Virus record (IMG/VR): IMGVR_UViG_2698536620_000014
Source of the DNA: a virus
Taxonomy: Duplodnaviria > Heunggongvirae > Uroviricota > Caudoviricetes
Reading direction: 5' to 3' (one strand)
Length of the DNA: 55,939 nucleotides
Shown here: positions 2,794-44,697 of the stretch, one piece after another
Numbering within the stretch: position 1 is the stretch's first letter
Layout: each line of letters starts with the position of its first letter
Notes under the pieces: generated by a model
Database searches by the model: none
What the model was told of the DNA's origin: nothing
The model's input: the letters and a program-made list of their open reading frames with translations, nothing else
Program-made: the position numbers and the translations under genes

Positions 2794-5386
2794 TTGCATA
2801 TTCCTTAGCCCAGCGGGGCAGTGATAACGTCTTAATAGCTGGCCATTCATCGGTATTGAGGCAGTCAGCCAGGGTTCGCAGATTGCGGTGATATTCCAGC
2901 TGACCTGCCAGTTTTGCTTCTTCGCCCATCATGAAAATTTCAACCGGATAACGTCCGCATTCAATAGTTGTGCTGGCAACCAGAAAAACGAAAGTTGGCT
3001 GCACTCCAAACTGTGCTTCATAACCGTCACTGTAGAATGCATCCTGAACGTGATAGCGGTAGTCGTAATAAGCGGTTTTGAATCGTTGAATATCCGCCGT
3101 AGTTTTCACGTCCATGATCCAGTGAAATTCAGGGATAATTTTGTCCGGACGGCACCGACACAAAATTGCTGTTTCAGGATCTTCCCAGTAAATTGATGAT
3201 TCAGCGTGTCCGGCGCTTTCAACAAGCCATTGCCCCAGCGGCAAAGCCATAACGCTCTGATACATGAGTTCAATTTTCCGGCCTTCTTCGGCAGTGATAA
3301 CCGTTTTTCCTGTGCTTGCGCATTCCCTCAGAAACGCTTTCTCTTCTTCTTTTCCGGAGTTTGTCCGGCGGTTAAATTCAGGTGCTACGATAAAGCGGTT
3401 ACTGAATTCTTCCGGCTCAAGTACCCGGCAGTGGAAAGCGGTTCCTAAATCGAGCGTTTTTGTCTTTGTGGTGTCCACGGGGGCATTTTTACGCCACAAA
3501 TACAGTGCCGGAGTATCAGCAATGTCATCGAGCTGAGACTTACTGACACCGGGACCCGCGTGGTAATTCTCATTCGAAATTCCGTAATAAATACCTGGCT
3601 CTATGTCTTCTACGATTACGGGATCTGCGACTTCGCCAGTTTCATCACTGCAATCGCGATGCGGATCGCTGCCAGCATTCTCATTGTGCGGATGTTCAGC
3701 GCCTTCCATTTCCTCCGGATCATTTTCCTTAGCTTCAACCTGACTCTCTTCATCGAATGTTTCCTGGTATGTTGCGTCGCCCATCACCGCACCACAGTCA
3801 GGGCAGTTATCCCCGCCAGTCTGGCCGCAGGCATTGCAGGCTATTTCCGGTTCCTGTTGCACTACTGGCTCAGGTTGATTCATATCCGGGCTGGTTTTTT
3901 CCGTTTCTGGCTGGTTCTGGTACACACAATCGCGAGTCTGGATCCCCTTTACCCATTTCGGATCGTTCGGGTCGCTAATTCCGTCAACAAATTCACCACG
4001 TGATGCAGCAAGCAATTTATCGGCATCGACAGGATTTTTTGATGGAATGTTTTTCCGGGCTTCATGGAGTTCTGCCCGCAGTTCCTGATATTTCGCATCA
4101 ACAGAATTTACCTGTGACTGAGCATCCAGCGGCTGCGTGTCCTGATGATGTTCAGTTGCGTCCGGTTCCATTGTTTCAGCCTCTCCCTGTTCAACTGCCG
4201 TTGTTCCAGATGGTTGCGGTTTTTCTTCATCATCCTGTTTTCCTTCTTCTGTTACTCGCTGCGGCATCGGGGCAGAGGAGCGACCGCAGGCAATATCCAC
4301 GATTTCCGGATCAGGGTTGGCATGATCGGTTTCAGTCAGTACTTTGTTCAGATATTCAGTGACGTGCGCGGGGATGACCTCGATCCCAATTGGTGCTTCT
4401 TTTACGGACGCAACCACGATGGCGCGGGAATAATCCAGCCCGCCAGGCATGGTGATGAATTTGTCGCGGAAAACAGAAAAGGGCGGTTTATTTTCAGCGA
4501 TAATTTCCTCAATGCGTTTAGCGTGTGCCGGATGAAGGTTATAGATGTCCAGATCCATTGAACGGGCCAGTACGCCAGTGGCTACGTCCCGCGCCAGTGA
4601 CGTCAGATCGTGTACGAAACCTTCGCCGCGATCGGTGAGGTTTCCGCCGCCAGCATTAGCACCGGAAGCCGTGCGAGTGATGTGTGAAACACGATTACCC
4701 TTCATCCACTCTTTTGTCAGCAGTCCTCGATCGGTGTAGTCAGCGTTCAGGTATGCTTCGAAAAAAGCAGTTATCAGTCCCAGGTTTGAATTACCAGGAT
4801 TAGGGAAAACTTTGTCAGTGTCACGAACCAGTTTGTGGAGTTCGCGAATTTCCAGCGGGTCGAGCAGGCTGGTTTTGTGGGAAACAGCCAGGGCAGTAAC
4901 AGCCGGTAGTTCTTCAGCCCGAGCAATGTGTAATGCCTGGAGTCCGTCGCGTGAAACGTGCGTTACCGGTTTTTCGCTGCCGTGTTGAGCAAGCCAACGA
5001 ATGGGCAGTTCCTGGCCAGAAATTGGGAGTAGCATATTCTCCTCAATCTCAGGCATGTCTTCGCCGTTGACGTTGGTATTGCCTTGATAGTGAGCGTTGT
5101 CTGGTGCTGCTCCCGGTTTTAGTTCCCATGTCATGGAGTCTTTGCTGAGTTGATAGCGTTCACTCCAGGTAAAATCGATCTCACCTTCAGCGGGCAGGTC
5201 ATTAACGACAGGAAAATTCGTGGCAACAGCTTTAAAATAGCTGCTCAGTTTTTTACCTGACTTAACGATCAGGTAGTCCAGAGTGGCACAGGTCGATTCA
5301 AAATCGTTGCTTGCCCACAGGACGACGTCAGGTTCACCGGATGATTTTTTCGCTTTCCGTAACAGGAAGAGTGGTTTTGTGCTCAT
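2786..5386 (-). CDS. recE: RecE exonuclease VIII, 866 aa
   Basis: 866-aa ORF, same length as K-12 RecE; acidic Cys-rich middle region; operon with recT. Confidence 0.9.
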
Positions 5387-16308: not shown

Positions 16309-16598
16309 TGGTGAATTTACGTAAAGCGGCTAAAGGCCAGATGTGCCAGATCAGAATCCCTGGCTACTGCAATCACAATCCCGAAACCTCTGTGCTGGCG
16401 CATTACAGGCTGGCGGGGACGTGCGGAACAGCGACAAAACCACATGATATGCAGGCGGCGATAGCCTGTAGCTCATGCCACGATCTAATCGACGGGCGGG
16501 TAAAAACCAGCGATTACACCAAAGAAGAATTGCGCCTGATGCATGCTGAAGGGGTTTTTCGCACACAAGAAATCTGGAGAAAGAAAGGTCATTTATGA
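16308..16598 (+). CDS. YbcO-like Cys-rich nin-region protein (putative nuclease), 96 aa
   Basis: 96 aa with CQIRIPGYCNHNPETSVLAHY...CSSCHDLIDG metal-binding-like Cys/His pattern; same size as DLP12 YbcO. Confidence 0.65.
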   Translation: MVNLRKAAKGQMCQIRIPGYCNHNPETSVLAHYRLAGTCGTATKPHDMQAAIACSSCHDLIDGRVKTSDYTKEELRLMHAEGVFRTQEIWRKKGHL

Positions 16599-17137
16599 TT
16601 TACCCAACGAATACAGGAAAAAGCGGAGAACACCTTCGCCTCACCACGCTGGAAAGTGTCTGGATTCAGGGAAAACTACGTATGTGGGGGCGCTGGTCGT
16701 ATATTGGCGGTGGCAGGTCAGGGAATATGTTCAATCAGTTGTTGGCATCCAAAAAACTGACGAAAACAGCCATTAATGAAGCCCTGCGCAGAATGAAAAA
16801 AGCGGGAATAGAGAAAGCTGAGCTGGAAGCGTTTTTGCGAGAGATGATCAACGGCAAGCAAAAGAGCTGGCTGGCGCATTGTACTGATGCAGAGGCGTTA
16901 TGTATTGATCGAGTCATAAGTGAGGTGCTGGCAGAGCATCCAGGATTGATTTGCATTCTCCGGCAACGCTATGAAGGGCGGGGGATGACTAAGCGCAAAA
17001 TGGCTGAATTGCTAAATGATGCACACCCAGAGTGGTGTTTTAGCACATGCGAAAAACGGATTGCTAATTGGTTAGCTGTTGCTGAGTATGCCCTATATAT
17101 TCCCATGCGTGAATCATTTGCTGAGAAAATGGCTTGA
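16595..17137 (+). CDS. Q-like late-gene antiterminator, 180 aa
   Basis: Last gene before the lysis region; contains an RWG-W motif (LRMWGRWSY) like Q-family antiterminators; followed by a terminator 80 bp downstream. Confidence 0.55.
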   Translation: MIYPTNTGKSGEHLRLTTLESVWIQGKLRMWGRWSYIGGGRSGNMFNQLLASKKLTKTAINEALRRMKKAGIEKAELEAFLREMINGKQKSWLAHCTDAEALCIDRVISEVLAEHPGLICILRQRYEGRGMTKRKMAELLNDAHPEWCFSTCEKRIANWLAVAEYALYIPMRESFAEKMA

Positions 17138-17215: not shown

Positions 17216-17245
17216 GTAAAAAAACCGCTTAATGCGGTTTTTTTA
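17216..17245 (+). terminator. Rho-independent terminator downstream of Q (tR'-like)
   Basis: aaaccgc-ttaat-gcggttt hairpin (17222-17240) followed by T-run to 17244. Confidence 0.6.
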
Positions 17246-17564
17246 CGTCAGGAAAGCAGGGGAGAATGCTGCTAGTTGGGCAACTGGTCTTTCTGCTCCA
17301 AATTATAACAGAGACCAGTTATAGTTTCGGTGCTGTGTTTTTTTTACAATATTGTGATAACACATTGCTGGCGGGAGTTTTGATATTTCTTGGCAGGGGC
17401 TGATGATGCGTTATCCTGATGTCGTCAACTCATATAAAATGAGATGAGAGATCATTGCAGGGTGGTTTGTAATTCGCTGTTTAGCGGGACAATATGTTGT
17501 CTGATACAAGACACCCGACGCCTCAGATTACTATAATAAAGACGAAGCATCCTTTGTATTGACC

Positions 17565-17590
17565 AACCGCCTGTTTAGGCGGTTCTTTTT
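17565..17590 (+). terminator. Hairpin plus T-run (second terminator-like element in the Q-lysis intergenic region)
   Basis: aaccgcc-tgttta-ggcggtt stem-loop followed by cttttt; a TATAAT hexamer lies about 30 nt upstream (17532-17537). Confidence 0.4.
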
Positions 17591-18122
17591 GGGCTGGTTT
17601 ATTGTATGCCAAATGATTATTAAAAAGGTTGTGTTAATAACAAGATCCGAAATAATATGCCTGCATATTTTTATCTTGCTTATATTCTGCATATTGTGCA
17701 TAGCAGGCTCATCCCTGCAATCAAAACTGTATGATGAGTATTTTTTGTTTTCCTTTTTTCCAGTCATCTGATGATGACCTGCTTCTTTTTAATCCGGATC
17801 GACATCAGTTTTTTAAGATAATTCCTGCGAGTTATATGCATAAATGCCACAAACTCCGCATTTTATGTGGTTGGGAGTTGCCGGGCGCGCAGTGAGTTTG
17901 CTAAGAAAACTCCTGCATGGTGAATCCCCCTGTGCGGTGGGGTGATACCATTAACCTTTTCTGTCGCCGACAGGTATCACGAACATTTTGTTCACCGGGA
18001 GGCACCCGGCACCATGCACTTCAATAGATTCTCTCCACATTATGGATATTCTTTCAGAATATCCCACGCAGACTTTGTGTAAATGTTAACAAATGTGCGT
18101 TTTATTTGATCTGATTCGCTGT

Positions 18123-18152
18123 TTGAGCGTCCAAAACAACGGTATATATAAT
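18123..18152 (+). promoter_or_regulatory. Putative sigma70 promoter for the lipoprotein moron
   Basis: TTGAGC (18123-18128), 18-nt spacer, TATAAT (18147-18152); about 30 nt upstream of the RBS and ATG at 18182. Confidence 0.4.
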
Positions 18153-18181
18153 CCTTTACTATATGACATATGTGAGGAAAA

Positions 18182-18610
18182 ATGGGTTTTCGTAGCGCAT
18201 CAATTCTTACGTTGATTATTAGTGGGATTATTATCGGGTGCACTGATGCTGTATCGACAAATTATCATGACCGTACATCATATTACTCCGATAAAGCAAT
18301 AGAGACACAGTATGTGAGTTCATCTGAACGTACTTCTGATGTTAGTGAGGATATCCGTCTGTATGCCCATCAAATCAAGAGCGCCATCGAAAAACAGTTC
18401 GGGGATGCGAGTAAGTATTCAGGAAAAGAGTGTACACTGAGAATGCATATGGCCCCGAATGGCCTTCTACTGGAGGTTAAAAGAGAAAGTGGAGACCTCG
18501 ATTTATGTCGTGAAGCGATGAATGCGATAAAGAATGCTGATATACCTGCCCCCCCTTCGCCGGAAGTATATAAAGTATTTCAAAATGGGGTGCTGGATTT
18601 TAAACCCTGA
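18182..18610 (+). CDS. Lipoprotein with TolA C-terminal (domain III)-like fold, 142 aa
   Basis: Lipobox IIGC near the N-terminus; C-terminal YAHQIKSAIEKQFGDASKYSGKECTLRMHMAPNGLLLEVKRESGDLDLCREAMNAIKNADIPAPPSPEVYKVFQNGVLDFKP closely parallels the C-terminal domain of E. coli TolA as I recall it. Confidence 0.75.
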   Translation: MGFRSASILTLIISGIIIGCTDAVSTNYHDRTSYYSDKAIETQYVSSSERTSDVSEDIRLYAHQIKSAIEKQFGDASKYSGKECTLRMHMAPNGLLLEVKRESGDLDLCREAMNAIKNADIPAPPSPEVYKVFQNGVLDFKP

Positions 18611-18760
18611 TATTTATTGTTTTGTAATAAACGGTTTCGGCTTAGGTTTGTTCTGACACAGCTACGGCACTGAGCTAAATTTAGCGGATAGTCAGCTCTG
18701 AGCCAGTGGCGGACGTAACAACTACTATTGCTGAGATTTTAATGGATTGAGGAGCAAGAA

Positions 18761-19156
18761 GTGGGATTAAAGAAAATCGTTATGTTGACTTTTTGGGTCG
18801 GTTTTGTTGCGGGATGCACACCTTTACACCCTTCAGATTGCCACAAAACTACTGCTACAGGTAGTTGCAGTTCAGGACGCTGGGATGATCAGGATGAATG
18901 GGGGGCGCAAGCGCGGGGAATCAGAGCTGCAATTAATGCCAAACTTGATGAGCCGCATAACTGGAAAGGGAAAAAATGCAGGTTGCATATGGAATTCTCT
19001 CAGGATGGCACGGCGTTAAAAATATCTACCAGTAACGGTGATAAAGCCTATTGCGAAGCGATAAAGTCCGCAGCTCATAAAGCCAAATTTCCGGCCTTCA
19101 ACAATCCGGAAGTCTACAGAGATTTTCAGAAATCTGGCTTTGACATGCGAGGTTAG
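18761..19156 (+). CDS. Second, diverged TolA-domain-III-like lipoprotein, 131 aa
   Basis: GTG start after GAGGAG; lipobox VAGC; C-terminal KCRLHMEFSQDGTALKISTSNGDKAYCEAIKSAAHKAKFPAFNNPEVYRDFQ is paralogous to the preceding gene. Confidence 0.7.
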   Translation: MGLKKIVMLTFWVGFVAGCTPLHPSDCHKTTATGSCSSGRWDDQDEWGAQARGIRAAINAKLDEPHNWKGKKCRLHMEFSQDGTALKISTSNGDKAYCEAIKSAAHKAKFPAFNNPEVYRDFQKSGFDMRG

Positions 19157-19407
19157 CTCTTCAATTACTATATCTCATTCATAGCAAACTGACAGATTTG
19201 ATGATGTTCTATATACGAAACCTGTGATGTCAAGTCTGAGCTAATACAAATAAACATAATATCAGAGAAATACATTTTATTAGCTCGCTACGGCGAGCTT
19301 TTTATATTGCATCGTCTCCAGCATATATATCAATTAAGGCTCTGATTGATGTGTCTGAAAGCCTACACATAATAACTATGCCATCCGTTCCGTGCGGAGG
19401 TGAGGCT

Positions 19408-19623
19408 ATGAAATCCATGGACAAAATTTCAACAGGCATTGCCTACGGCACCTCCGCAGGCAGTGCTGGCTACTGGTTTTTACAGTTGCTCGATAGAGTA
19501 ACTCCGTCACAGTGGGCTGCAATCGGTGTGCTGGGTAGTCTGGTATTTGGCCTGCTGACGTACCTGACAAACCTTTATTTCAAGATTAAAGAAGATAAGC
19601 GCAAGGCTGCGAGAGGTGAATAA
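19408..19623 (+). CDS. Class II holin (phage 21 S-like pinholin), 71 aa, dual-start motif
   Basis: ATG 19408 after GGAGGTGAGG; [14 protein letters not shown]... with second Met at codon 4; two TM segments; stop overlaps the endolysin start. Confidence 0.85.
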
Positions 19624-20099: not shown

Positions 20100-20342
20100 N
20101 NNNNNNNNNNNNNNNNNNNNNNNNNNNNNNNNNNNNNNNNNNNNNNNNNNNNNNNNNNNNNNNNNNNNNNNNNNNNNNNNNNNNNNNNNNNNNNNNNNNN
20201 NNNNNNNNNNNNNNNNNNNNNNNNNNNNNNNNNNNNNNNNNNNNNNNNNNNNNNNNNNNNNNNNNNNNNNNNNNNNNNNNNNNNNNNNNNNNNNNNNNNN
20301 NNNNNNNNNNNNNNNNNNNNNNNNNNNNNNNNNNNNNNNNNN
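20100..20342. other. Assembly gap (243 N)
   Basis: Run of N; removes the endolysin 3' end and the Rz/Rz1 5' ends. Confidence 0.99.
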
Positions 20343-20584: not shown

Positions 20585-20721
20585 AATCTTAACTACAATA
20601 TGATTCATTTTGATGATTGTTTCATAAGGAACAGTGAAGTAAGATCTAAGAGGAGTTAAATTTTATACAGTATAATCATAATATTGCAGCAAGGTGGTTA
20701 TAATTGAAAGAATATTTAGAT

Positions 20722-22179
20722 ATGAATACATCTCATGTAAGAGTTGTTACTCATATGTGTGGGTTCCTGGTTTGGCTCTATAGTCTTTCAATGTTGCCAC
20801 CAATGGTTGTAGCATTGTTTTATAAAGAAAAAAGCCTGTTCGTTTTCTTTATAACTTTCGTTATATTTTTTTGCATTGGTGGCGGAGCGTGGTATACAAC
20901 TAAGAAATCTGGCATTCAATTACGTACCCGTGATGGGTTTATTATAATTGTAATGTTTTGGATTTTGTTTTCTGTTATTAGTGCATTCCCTTTATGGATT
21001 GACTCAGAACTTAATTTAACGTTCATTGATGCTCTGTTTGAAGGGGTTTCTGGAATAACAACAACAGGAGCAACTGTAATTGATGATGTTAGTTCATTAC
21101 CTCGGGCATATTTGTACTATCGGTCACAGTTAAATTTTATAGGTGGTTTAGGAGTTATTGTTCTGGCGGTTGCAGTATTGCCATTATTGGGTATTGGTGG
21201 TGCAAAGCTTTATCAGTCAGAAATGCCGGGGCCATTTAAGGATGACAAACTCACTCCCCGCCTGGCCGATACGTCACGGACACTGTGGATAACTTATTCT
21301 TTATTAGGTATTGCTTGTATTGTCTGTTATAGACTTGCAGGAATGCCTTTGTTTGATGCTATTTGTCACGGGATTTCCACAGTTTCGCTTGGTGGTTTCT
21401 CAACTCATAGCGAGAGTATCGGATATTTTAATAACTATTTGGTTGAGCTGGTGGCTGGTTCTTTTTCCCTGCTATCGGCTTTCAACTTCACTCTTTGGTA
21501 TATTGTTATTAGCAGAAAAACGATAAAACCTTTAATCAGAGATATTGAACTTCGTTTCTTTCTGTTAATAGCCTTAGGGGTGATCATTGTTACCTCTTTC
21601 CAGGTCTGGCATATAGGTATGTATGACTTGCATGGAAGTTTTATTCATTCGTTTTTTCTTGCCAGCTCCATGCTCACTGATAATGGTTTAGCTACGCAGG
21701 ATTATGCAAACTGGCCCACGCACACGATAGTGTTTTTGCTGTTGTCAAGTTTCTTTGGGGGATGTATAGGTTCAACCTGTGGTGGAATTAAGTCACTTCG
21801 ATTTCTTATACTTTTCAAACAAAGCAAACACGAGATAAATCAGCTTTCTCATCCCAGAGCGTTGTTGAGTGTAAATGTAGGAGGGAAGATAGTTACAGAT
21901 CGTGTAATGAGGTCTGTATGGAGTTTCTTTTTTCTTTATACTCTCTTCACGGTGTTTTTTATACTGGTGTTAAATGGTATGGGATATGATTTTCTTACAT
22001 CATTTGCAACAGTGGCTGCATGTATTAATAATATGGGATTAGGTTTTGGGGCTACTGCATCGTCATTCGGAGTGCTTAATGACATTGCAAAATATTTAAT
22101 GTGCATAGCTATGATTCTTGGTCGCCTTGAAATTTATCCTGTTATTATATTGTTTTCAGGTTTTTTTTGGCGCTCCTAA
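20722..22179 (+). CDS. trkG: TrkG potassium uptake protein (TrkH/TrkG family), 485 aa
   Basis: ATG 20722 (MNTSHVRVVTHMCGF...); polytopic membrane protein; same length as the Rac-encoded TrkG of K-12; AT-rich. Confidence 0.9.
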   Translation: MNTSHVRVVTHMCGFLVWLYSLSMLPPMVVALFYKEKSLFVFFITFVIFFCIGGGAWYTTKKSGIQLRTRDGFIIIVMFWILFSVISAFPLWIDSELNLTFIDALFEGVSGITTTGATVIDDVSSLPRAYLYYRSQLNFIGGLGVIVLAVAVLPLLGIGGAKLYQSEMPGPFKDDKLTPRLADTSRTLWITYSLLGIACIVCYRLAGMPLFDAICHGISTVSLGGFSTHSESIGYFNNYLVELVAGSFSLLSAFNFTLWYIVISRKTIKPLIRDIELRFFLLIALGVIIVTSFQVWHIGMYDLHGSFIHSFFLASSMLTDNGLATQDYANWPTHTIVFLLLSSFFGGCIGSTCGGIKSLRFLILFKQSKHEINQLSHPRALLSVNVGGKIVTDRVMRSVWSFFFLYTLFTVFFILVLNGMGYDFLTSFATVAACINNMGLGFGATASSFGVLNDIAKYLMCIAMILGRLEIYPVIILFSGFFWRS

Positions 22180-44053: not shown

Positions 44054-44697
44054 ATGCGTAAACTTTATGCCGCCATTTTGTCCGCAGCCATTTGTCTGGC
44101 CGTATCCGGTGCGCCTGCATGGGCGTCTGAACATCAGTCCACGCTGAGCGCGGGGTATCTTCATNNNNNNNNNNNNNNNNNNNNNNNNNNNNNNNNNNNN
44201 NNNNNNNNNNNNNNNNNNNNNNNNNNNNNNNNNNNNNNNNNNNNNNNNNNNNNNNNNNNNNNNNNNNNNNNNNNNNNNNNNNNNNNNNNNNNNNNNNNNN
44301 NTTCAGCTATGCAGGAGACAAGAATCGCCAGCTGACCCGTTACAGCGATACCCGCTGGTATGAAGATTCCGTGCGTAACCGCTGGTTCAGCGTGATGGCG
44401 GGGCCGTCTGTGCGCGTGAATGAATGGTTCAGCGCGTATGCGATGGCGGGTGTGGCTTACAGCCGTGTGTCGACTTTTTCCGGGGATTATATCCGCGTAA
44501 CTGACAATAAGGGGAAAACGCACGATGTGCTGACCGGAAGTGATGACGGTCGCCACAGCAACACGTCTCTGGCGTGGGGAGCTGGCGTGCAGTTTAACCC
44601 GACCGAATCCGTGGCCATTGATATTGCTTATGAAGGCTCCGGCAGTGGCGACTGGCGCACTGACGGTTTCATCGTGGGTGTCGGTTATAAATTCTGA
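44054..44697 (+). CDS. lom: Lom/Ail-family outer membrane protein; middle of gene replaced by assembly gap
   Basis: Signal peptide MRKLYAAILSAAICLAVSGAPAWA before the gap; after it, beta-barrel C-terminus ...SGSGDWRTDGFIVGVGYKF closely matching lambda Lom. Confidence 0.7.
44165..44301. other. Assembly gap (137 N) inside lom
   Basis: Run of N. Confidence 0.99.

Follow-up and report, generated by a model that had tools for sequence, protein, structure and literature searches.

Two TolA domain III-like lipoproteins encoded in the Q-to-holin interval of a lambdoid prophage: candidate decoys of the Tol import hub

Background

Bacteriocins of groups A and B, as well as phages, exploit the two periplasmic hubs, domain III of TolA and the C-terminal domain of TonB; how colicins and filamentous phages enter through Tol-Pal is textbook knowledge. 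Cells are known to defend themselves naturally by specific immunity proteins, loss of the receptor and tol mutations. Levengood-Freyermuth, Click and Webster are said to have found in 1993 that periplasmic TolA domain III makes cells tolerant to colicins and Ff phages, and leaky. Several mobile elements encode outer-membrane exclusion lipoproteins, such as Cor (phi80/N15/HK022), Llp (T5), TraT (F) and Exc2 (ColE1), of which Cor and Llp block FhuA. Here we analyse two neighbouring open reading frames (ORFs), A and B, in a 55,939-nt stretch of viral DNA (IMG/VR record IMGVR_UViG_2698536620_000014; hereafter the window), each of which encodes a short lipoprotein that ends in a domain resembling TolA domain III (TolA-III).

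In TolA itself, strand beta3 of this domain (A415-K420, in which D418 and K420 are critical) binds the N-terminus of TolB, colicin N and the N1 domain of g3p (g3p-N1) by strand addition; the dissociation constant for TolA is 1 µM for colicin N versus 40 µM for TolB, and the D418P and K420P substitutions lead to loss of TolB binding and a full tol phenotype (PMC4339652). The site of colicin A is on the opposite edge of the domain, L375-P380, with cation-pi contacts at K368, K379 and K396 (PMC3365938). When g3p-N1 is present in the periplasm, cells are resistant to colicin A and phage uptake falls by 4 logs, effects that have been ascribed to sequestration of TolA (cited in PMC10424213).

What is already known about A and B is the domain similarity, visible in the RefSeq names, which label both genes by domain. 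A full-text literature search found no functional study of genes of this type; mentions are confined to annotation tables (PMC6854850) and, for a related pair from Klebsiella, a passing remark (PMC10269471). What is new is that A and B are intact, conserved lipoproteins, probably of the outer membrane; that short secreted TolA-III proteins form a large family on prophages, plasmids and chromosomes, of which A and B are members; and that the beta3 ligand strand is preserved, with relatives that associate with a TonB C-terminal domain (TonB-CTD) partner, bacteriocin operons and exclusion genes.

Results and discussion

A and B have the fold of TolA domain III but are not TolA

The Pfam profile of the TolA C-terminal domain (PF06519; cutoff 25) matches A with 82.6 bits (2.4e-23) and B with 54.6 bits (1.3e-14). 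In a phmmer search against PDB, residues 55-142 of A aligned with residues 334-421 of E. coli TolA, gapless and C-terminus to C-terminus, with 52 of 88 residues identical (59%; E 5e-28), so that the likeness to TolA-III claimed in the original prediction, which a model had made from the letters of the window, is confirmed by formal alignment. Over the same region B shares 27 of 88 residues with the solved TolA domain III (TolAIII; 31%, E 5e-9), and its identity to A is 29% (E 2e-18), as expected of the diverged paralogue that it had been taken for. Both proteins also match PHROG 5772, a family without assigned function.

AlphaFold models of the two proteins have a predicted local distance difference test score (pLDDT) of about 90 over both domains, the signal and linker of A being disordered. 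E. coli TolAIII is the top Foldseek match of both models, and structures of the TonB-CTD are also among the matches. The model of A superposes on TolAIII of the g3p complex (2x9a_B) at 0.6 Å over 88 residues and that of B on 3qdp at 1.2 Å over 86 alignment columns; structure prediction thus agrees with the proposed fold. As modelled, both domains would contain all elements of the TolAIII alpha/beta fold, that is a helix, a three-stranded sheet, further helices and a disulfide pair, and the disulfide cysteines equivalent to C363 and C388 of TolA are retained in both sequences.

A and B are nevertheless not TolA. With E. coli TolA domain III (PF06519; PDB 1TOL, 2X9A, 3QDP/3QDR, 1S62) they share the fold and the disulfide, and A also has an identical LDFKP strand; TolA, however, possesses an N-terminal transmembrane anchor for TolQ-TolR, a long Ala/Lys/Glu-rich helical domain II and a place in the tol-pal operon, whereas A and B have a lipoprotein signal with a predicted cleavage at Cys20 or Cys19, a short linker and a prophage location between Q and holin. 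Because the transmembrane anchor and the helical domain II are missing, A and B cannot be energised by TolQR. The profile of full-length TolA (NF007065) was failed, with 107.8 bits against a cutoff of 213. A passes TIGR02794 (75.6 versus 59.45) through its C-terminal domain alone, which accounts for its RefSeq name 'tolA'; the matches to these two profiles cover only the last ~95 positions of models that are 362-387 positions long.

Intact lipoprotein genes under purifying selection

Both ORFs are present on the plus strand where the original prediction had placed them. A Shine-Dalgarno sequence GAGGA stands 5 nt before the ATG of A (18182), and GAGGAG stands 6 nt before the GTG of B (18761). 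The N-termini, MGFRSASILTLIISGIIIGC in A and MGLKKIVMLTFWVGFVAGC in B, have a charged n-region, a hydrophobic h-region and a lipobox of the form [LVI][ASTVI][GAS]C; these signal sequences bear out the two lipoboxes already read from the DNA, IIGC with Cys20 at 18239-18241 in A and VAGC with Cys19 at 18815-18817 in B. In A the signal is followed by a disordered linker (residues 21-54) and the TolA-III domain (residues 55-142; 18344-18607), and in B by a conserved linker that contains cysteines and the domain at about residues 44-131 (18890-19153), the linker being about 25-35 residues long in the two proteins, with 26-34 residues from the lipobox Cys to the domain. An Asp at position +2 after this Cys is the signal for retention in the inner membrane. 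The residue at +2 is Thr in A and in B, and both proteins are predicted to be targeted to the outer membrane, facing the periplasm.

The linker of B (residues 20-45, window 18818-18895; PLHPSxCHKTTATGSCSSGRWDDQDEWG) is near-invariant across genera in the B family. It holds two extra cysteines, which are placed around a small hairpin in the AlphaFold model, and its conservation goes far beyond the need of a passive tether.

The lipobox Cys is retained in all full-length homologues of A and B, and the A-family variants at 91%, 74% and 66% identity all have 142 aa and a lipobox. The ratio of nonsynonymous to synonymous substitution rates (dN/dS) is 0.09-0.34 over the domain of A, and 0.07-0.09 for B compared with its Serratia and Enterobacter orthologues, at a dS of ~1. 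Both genes are under purifying selection, and A is therefore not a 'tolA pseudogene'. In RefSeq (NZ_CP033250.1, annotated by PGAP) ORF A is given precisely as such, a 'tolA' pseudogene, 'incomplete, missing N-terminus', of which only the domain part is marked, and ORF B is started at the internal Met8 (18782), which drops the charged n-region of its signal peptide. When four genomic contexts were aligned, an ATG in the pO157 orthologue of B fell exactly on GTG 18761, so this start is favoured over the later Met. Both RefSeq calls look wrong; the labels are misleading and can be corrected whatever the function of the proteins. A recent capture or a fragment of E. coli tolA was also considered as the origin of A and rejected, because blastn with A as query never matched host tolA in 5426 complete E. 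coli genomes.

The two ligand sites of TolA mapped onto A and B

The positions of TolA that contact its ligands are compared in Table 1. Judged from this alignment, A retains both sites well, since beta3 reads LDFKP as in TolA and most of the colicin A positions (K379, K396) match. In B the strand character of beta3 is kept and the colicin A contacts are lost, with a charge reversal at D377.

Table 1. Residues of A, B and a related Klebsiella plasmid protein at the ligand-binding positions of TolA
Site (TolA numbering)	TolA	A	B	Klebsiella plasmid protein
beta3 (415-421)	APLDFKP	GVLDFKP	SGFDMRG	APLDFRP
Colicin A strand (375-380)	LLDIKP	LLEVKR	ALKIST	LNSAIA
K368, K379, K396	K, K, K	H, K, K	E, S, H	S, I, T

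A large family on prophages, plasmids and chromosomes

A profile search for the family over 1.84 billion representatives gave 583 matches, the best 150 of which were examined; 76 of these 150 are 100-170 aa long. Lipobox, linker and TolA-III domain make up 59 of the 76 short relatives, a plain signal peptide being present in a few others. Asp at +2 is absent from all 59 lipoproteins, most of which end in a TolA-like motif of the ...FKNA.LDFKP/L type. The more distant representatives lie on contigs of 1-2 kb, on which the gene context is uninformative.

The B family consists of 368 clusters at 90% identity, with members in Citrobacter, Enterobacter, Serratia, Klebsiella, Raoultella and Shigella that are often outside phages, as lone chromosomal genes or on plasmids. 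The Serratia orthologue of B, for example, is a lone chromosomal gene between nrdDG and a GmrSD/HEPN pair, and the one from Enterobacter is a lone gene among housekeeping-type genes. On pO157, the virulence plasmid of EHEC (NZ_CP018238.1, L003 5815-6246), an orthologue ~88% identical to B is located between the psiB/psiA/hok region and toxB, and ~526 plasmid records in complete E. coli genomes have this pO157-type B region at 80-90% DNA identity. Another member of the family adjoins a thioredoxin-like gene on an MPF_I conjugative plasmid. The occurrence of a solo gene on so many types of element would suit a trait that protects the host.

A different company is found in Klebsiella, where ColRNAI plasmids of 10-13 kb encode a 123-aa TolA-III lipoprotein (lipobox LLLTAC, beta3 APLDFRP) that is identical to A at 34 of 88 positions. 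Its gene is followed by one for a 121-aa signal-peptide protein with the TonB-CTD (PF03544, 42.5 bits), whose start it overlaps (L002 6445-7178, NZ_CP107420.1; also L104 and L106), and a colicin-like tRNase bacteriocin, accompanied by its immunity and lysis genes, is encoded 1-3 kb away from the pair. This pair resembles A and B in the lipobox-linker-TolA-III architecture and in the tandem two-gene layout of import-hub domains; it differs in that the second gene encodes a TonB-CTD with a plain signal peptide and in that it stands beside a bacteriocin operon on a plasmid, where our locus has a second TolA-III and belongs to a prophage. On the Klebsiella IncF plasmid NZ_CP155660.1 (L105 3689-5279) the same TolA-III gene is directly 3' of the entry-exclusion genes exc1/exc2. 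Secreted copies of both hub domains adjoining on a bacteriocin plasmid are the strongest contextual hint on function.

A possible decoy of the import hub

We tentatively propose, as the reading that we favour without holding it for established, that A and B are non-energised TolAIII decoys which are tethered to the outer membrane and give tolerance to TolA-dependent agents. On their short linker the two proteins would be suspended from the periplasmic side of the outer membrane. There they would compete with domain III of the host TolA for its usual partners, which they would bind by beta-strand addition: the translocation domains of Tol-dependent (group A) bacteriocins, g3p-N1 of those filamentous phages that depend on pili, and possibly also the TolB N-terminus. 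Capture close to the outer membrane, where these epitopes emerge from porins or pili, would be unproductive and could leave the lysogen tolerant. In effect, the mimic of an import hub would bring about lysogenic conversion or exclusion. Localisation, binding partners, expression in lysogens and the tolerance phenotype are inferred here. A decoy function would agree with the beta3 strand kept in A, the predicted tethering to the outer membrane and the genomic company of the relatives, and also with the purifying selection on both genes and their near-absence from sequenced phages.

The principle predicted for A and B is that of laboratory periplasmic TolA domain III or g3p-N1, namely titration of the interaction between TolAIII and its ligands. 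The laboratory fragments, however, are artificial, soluble and present at a high level, with leakiness as a cost, whereas A and B are natural, predicted to be lipid-anchored, and encoded by conserved genes of mobile elements. With Cor, Llp, TraT and Exc2 they have in common that they are small envelope lipoproteins of mobile elements, and one relative directly follows exc1/exc2; there is no kinship in sequence or fold, and the receptor block of Cor and Llp contrasts with the periplasmic hub mimicry proposed here.

A wider form of the proposal, which we put forward with less confidence still, is that secreted or tethered copies of TolA-III and the TonB-CTD may amount to a class of 'import immunity' that does not depend on the toxin, is widespread on prophages, conjugative plasmids and bacteriocin plasmids, and has so far escaped description. 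Such proteins might intercept the epitopes by which bacteriocins of groups A and B are translocated, as well as g3p, before these reach the energised machinery, and two paralogues might cover different sets of ligands.

If the decoy reading is right, cells could gain broad-spectrum tolerance by yet another route, a mobile and dominant mimic of the import hub. The trait would also be common, given that A is found in ~16% of complete E. coli genomes and B on pO157-type plasmids and in many Enterobacterales, with related genes on small bacteriocin plasmids of clinical Klebsiella. It would then matter for therapeutics built on bacteriocins or phages, for competition between gut bacteria and for the question of how conjugative plasmids might compensate for the exposure to phages that their pili bring, and it would provide natural minimal TolAIII variants for probing the interactions of TolA in vivo.

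The Q-to-holin slot and its cargo

The window is an E. coli prophage of the lambdoid Rac/mEp460 type, and its 1.5 kb around A and B recur at 100% identity in hundreds of complete E. coli chromosomes and at 99.9% identity in phage mEp460_ev081. On the plus strand the order is NinB-like, HNH/YbcO-like, Q-like antiterminator, ~1 kb of non-coding DNA, A, B, terminator, holin, endolysin, spanin and trkG (Table 2), so A and B do lie between Q and the lysis cassette as had been noticed.

Table 2. Features of the Q-to-holin interval in the window
Feature	Position	Strand	Evidence
Q-like late antiterminator, upstream edge of cargo slot	16595..17137	+	PHROG 753 'anti-termination protein Q-like' E 2e-79; Pfam DUF1133; PGAP DUF1133 family
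Bidirectional terminator hairpin AAAAAACCGCTTAATGCGGTTTTTTT, directly 3' of Q-like gene	17219-17246		sequence scan and fold
Candidate late promoter AAGACA-18-TATAAT (17508-17537), then strong intrinsic terminator (17565-17590)	17508..17590	+	promoter/terminator scan; hairpin -14.3 kcal/mol
Copy of the STnc100 prophage small RNA element, directly 5' of ORF A	17885..18071	+	Rfam RF02076, 86.6 bits vs gathering score 47
Sigma-70-like promoter match TTGAGC-18-TATAAT	18123..18152	+	10/12 consensus positions
ORF A, 142-aa TolA-III-like lipoprotein	18182..18610	+	ATG 18182, stop 18608-18610
ORF B, 131-aa diverged TolA-III-like lipoprotein	18761..19156	+	GTG 18761, stop 19154-19156
Intrinsic terminator AGCTCGC-TACG-GCGAGCT then TTTTT, between ORF B and holin	19282..19305	+	fold -13 kcal/mol, z -2.6
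Holin (essD-like), downstream edge of cargo slot	19408..19623	+	PHROG holin families; RefSeq essD

The A-family genes always lie between an antiterminator gene, which may be of either of two unrelated Q types, and the lysis genes. At this slot the window has A and B, loci L016-19 have A alone with STnc100 copies, and loci L012-15 have tRNAs, A, a nanS-p-like esterase, DUF1378, DUF826 and holin, which is the layout of Stx phages with A in the place of stx. Because A and B occur separately in other loci, they are independent units that share a slot and not an obligate pair. The description of the genes as morons holds for their position and terminator, in that the Q-like and lysis flanks are conserved, the content inserted between them varies among related prophages, and a terminator 3' of B separates B from holin and closes the A/B unit. 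Lambdoid phages carry other cargo between Q and holin (stx1/stx2, nanS-p and further morons), at the same position and with STnc100 flanks, the difference being that Stx phages carry a toxin and this prophage envelope lipoproteins. In L016/L017 three STnc100 copies flank the A gene (3704-3877, 4599-4803 and 4854-5061), and in Stx2 phages one copy follows closely after stx2 (PMC12370729); STnc100 seems to delimit the cargo slot.

By blastn the A family is present in 898 of the 5426 complete E. coli genomes, and A/B genes are common in clinical and animal isolates. Among 50,697 sequenced phage records A or B was found in one, a temperate relative of mEp460. A scan of IMG/VR added no diversity, the 80 loci kept containing identical copies of A only.

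Expression of A and B

The original prediction had given A and B a sigma-70 promoter of their own, independent of the late promoter. The string TTGAGC-18-TATAAT is indeed present, as a putative promoter: 11 promoter-like sites were counted over 2.7 kb as against 7.3 +/- 2.9 in shuffled sequence, and since this count is not above that of shuffled sequence the match alone is not evidence. Nor is the site conserved: variants of A at 91% identity have TGTAAT for the -10, and in those at 66% the region upstream of A is unalignable. Upstream of B, ~45 nt are conserved across the prophage, the plasmid and two chromosomal contexts, and no convincing promoter hexamers were recognised in them when these four contexts were aligned.

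Between the Q-like gene and A, the segment 17508-17590 appears to resemble a pR'/tR' late-control unit, with a gap of ~30 nt from promoter to terminator. Q-dependent late expression of A and B is at least as likely as expression from the promoter claimed for them, because both genes are downstream of this pair, and it would be expected on induction. The STnc100 copy in front of A has a 3' hairpin without the U-tract of the family consensus terminator, so that read-through from this element into A is conceivable. A 32-fold increase of a CP-933O 'TolA' gene, EDL933_2012, after ciprofloxacin (PMC11125564) was considered and rejected, because the supplement lists a tail fibre protein.

Difficulties of the decoy reading and other possible functions

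Several points speak against the decoy reading. For expression in the lysogen, which the decoy reading presumes, the claimed promoter match is neither significant nor conserved, and the position behind the putative late promoter predicts strong expression after induction only, when tolerance to colicins or phages would be of little use. B has an altered beta3 (FDMRG) and has lost the colicin A contact residues, and its ligand may therefore be a different one. A TolAIII domain tethered to the outer membrane could also sequester the N-terminus of TolB and so produce a costly, leaky tol phenotype. The association with bacteriocin plasmids comes from a few sampled plasmids that share one module and are therefore not independent observations, and a PADLOC search with the A and B proteins gave no match, there being no model for them.

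The late position raises another explanation, namely that A and B are helpers of the lytic cycle: tethered TolAIII, made from the Q-dependent late transcript, would sequester the TolB N-terminus and block Tol-Pal, would thereby slacken the attachment of the outer membrane to the cell wall, and in this way would aid spanin-mediated lysis, release of virions or formation of vesicles. The two genes are in fact on the late strand between the pR'/tR'-like element and holin, a position from which stx is expressed on induction, and competition at the TolB site could destabilise the envelope, since TolA with D418P or K420P loses TolB binding and has a full tol phenotype (PMC4339652). The prophage, however, already has a lysis gene set of holin, endolysin and spanin, from which B is separated by its terminator; genes of the B family often occur apart from phages, both singly on chromosomes and on plasmids, and the family is met in a single sequenced phage record, that of a temperate phage; and the binding of TolB to TolA is weak (40 µM). 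We consider this function unlikely.

It is likewise improbable, in our judgement, that the proteins mask a receptor or channel, although this would apply to B more readily than to A. The domain would here be a strand-addition module that acts on an outer-membrane protein and blocks tailed phages in the manner of Cor and Llp. TolA-III and the TonB-CTD share a fold, and TonB-CTD structures are among the fold matches; B has diverged at both TolA ligand sites and is yet the most constrained of the two, linker included; and Serratia homologues adjoin GmrSD/HEPN defence-type genes. On the other side, A retains the TolA-specific beta3 and most of the colicin A contacts, there is no candidate target, and neither exclusion proteins nor PADLOC models were matched.

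Even less probable is a conversion factor of the virulence type, which would confer serum or antimicrobial-peptide resistance, or adhesion, through changes of the envelope, like the Bor and Lom morons of lambda. A lipoprotein in the cargo slot, an orthologue of B next to toxB on pO157 and the frequency of the genes in clinical and animal isolates would agree with it; against it, the domain is predicted to face the periplasm and not the surface, relatives are widespread in environmental Enterobacterales and on bacteriocin plasmids, and nothing links the domain to host factors.

That A and B are non-functional debris of a captured host tolA, as the PGAP pseudogene call ('tolA, incomplete, missing N-terminus') and the passing of the TIGR02794 equivalog cutoff solely via the C-terminal domain might suggest, is scarcely credible and was rejected on dN/dS (0.07-0.34) and on the conservation of the signal peptides: the ORFs are intact, ribosome-binding sites and lipoprotein signals are kept in variants down to 66% identity, the length of 142 aa is conserved and host tolA is not detected by blastn with A.

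Other features downstream of the locus

The window contains masked runs of N at 20100-20342, 44165-44301 and 46544, and the endolysin and spanin genes are not fully readable because the first of these runs falls inside them. Directly 3' of the lysis cassette, as in the Rac prophage of K-12, is trkG (20704-22179), which encodes a potassium transporter; it is a second cargo gene of low guanine-plus-cytosine content, 37.7% versus 47% in the window.

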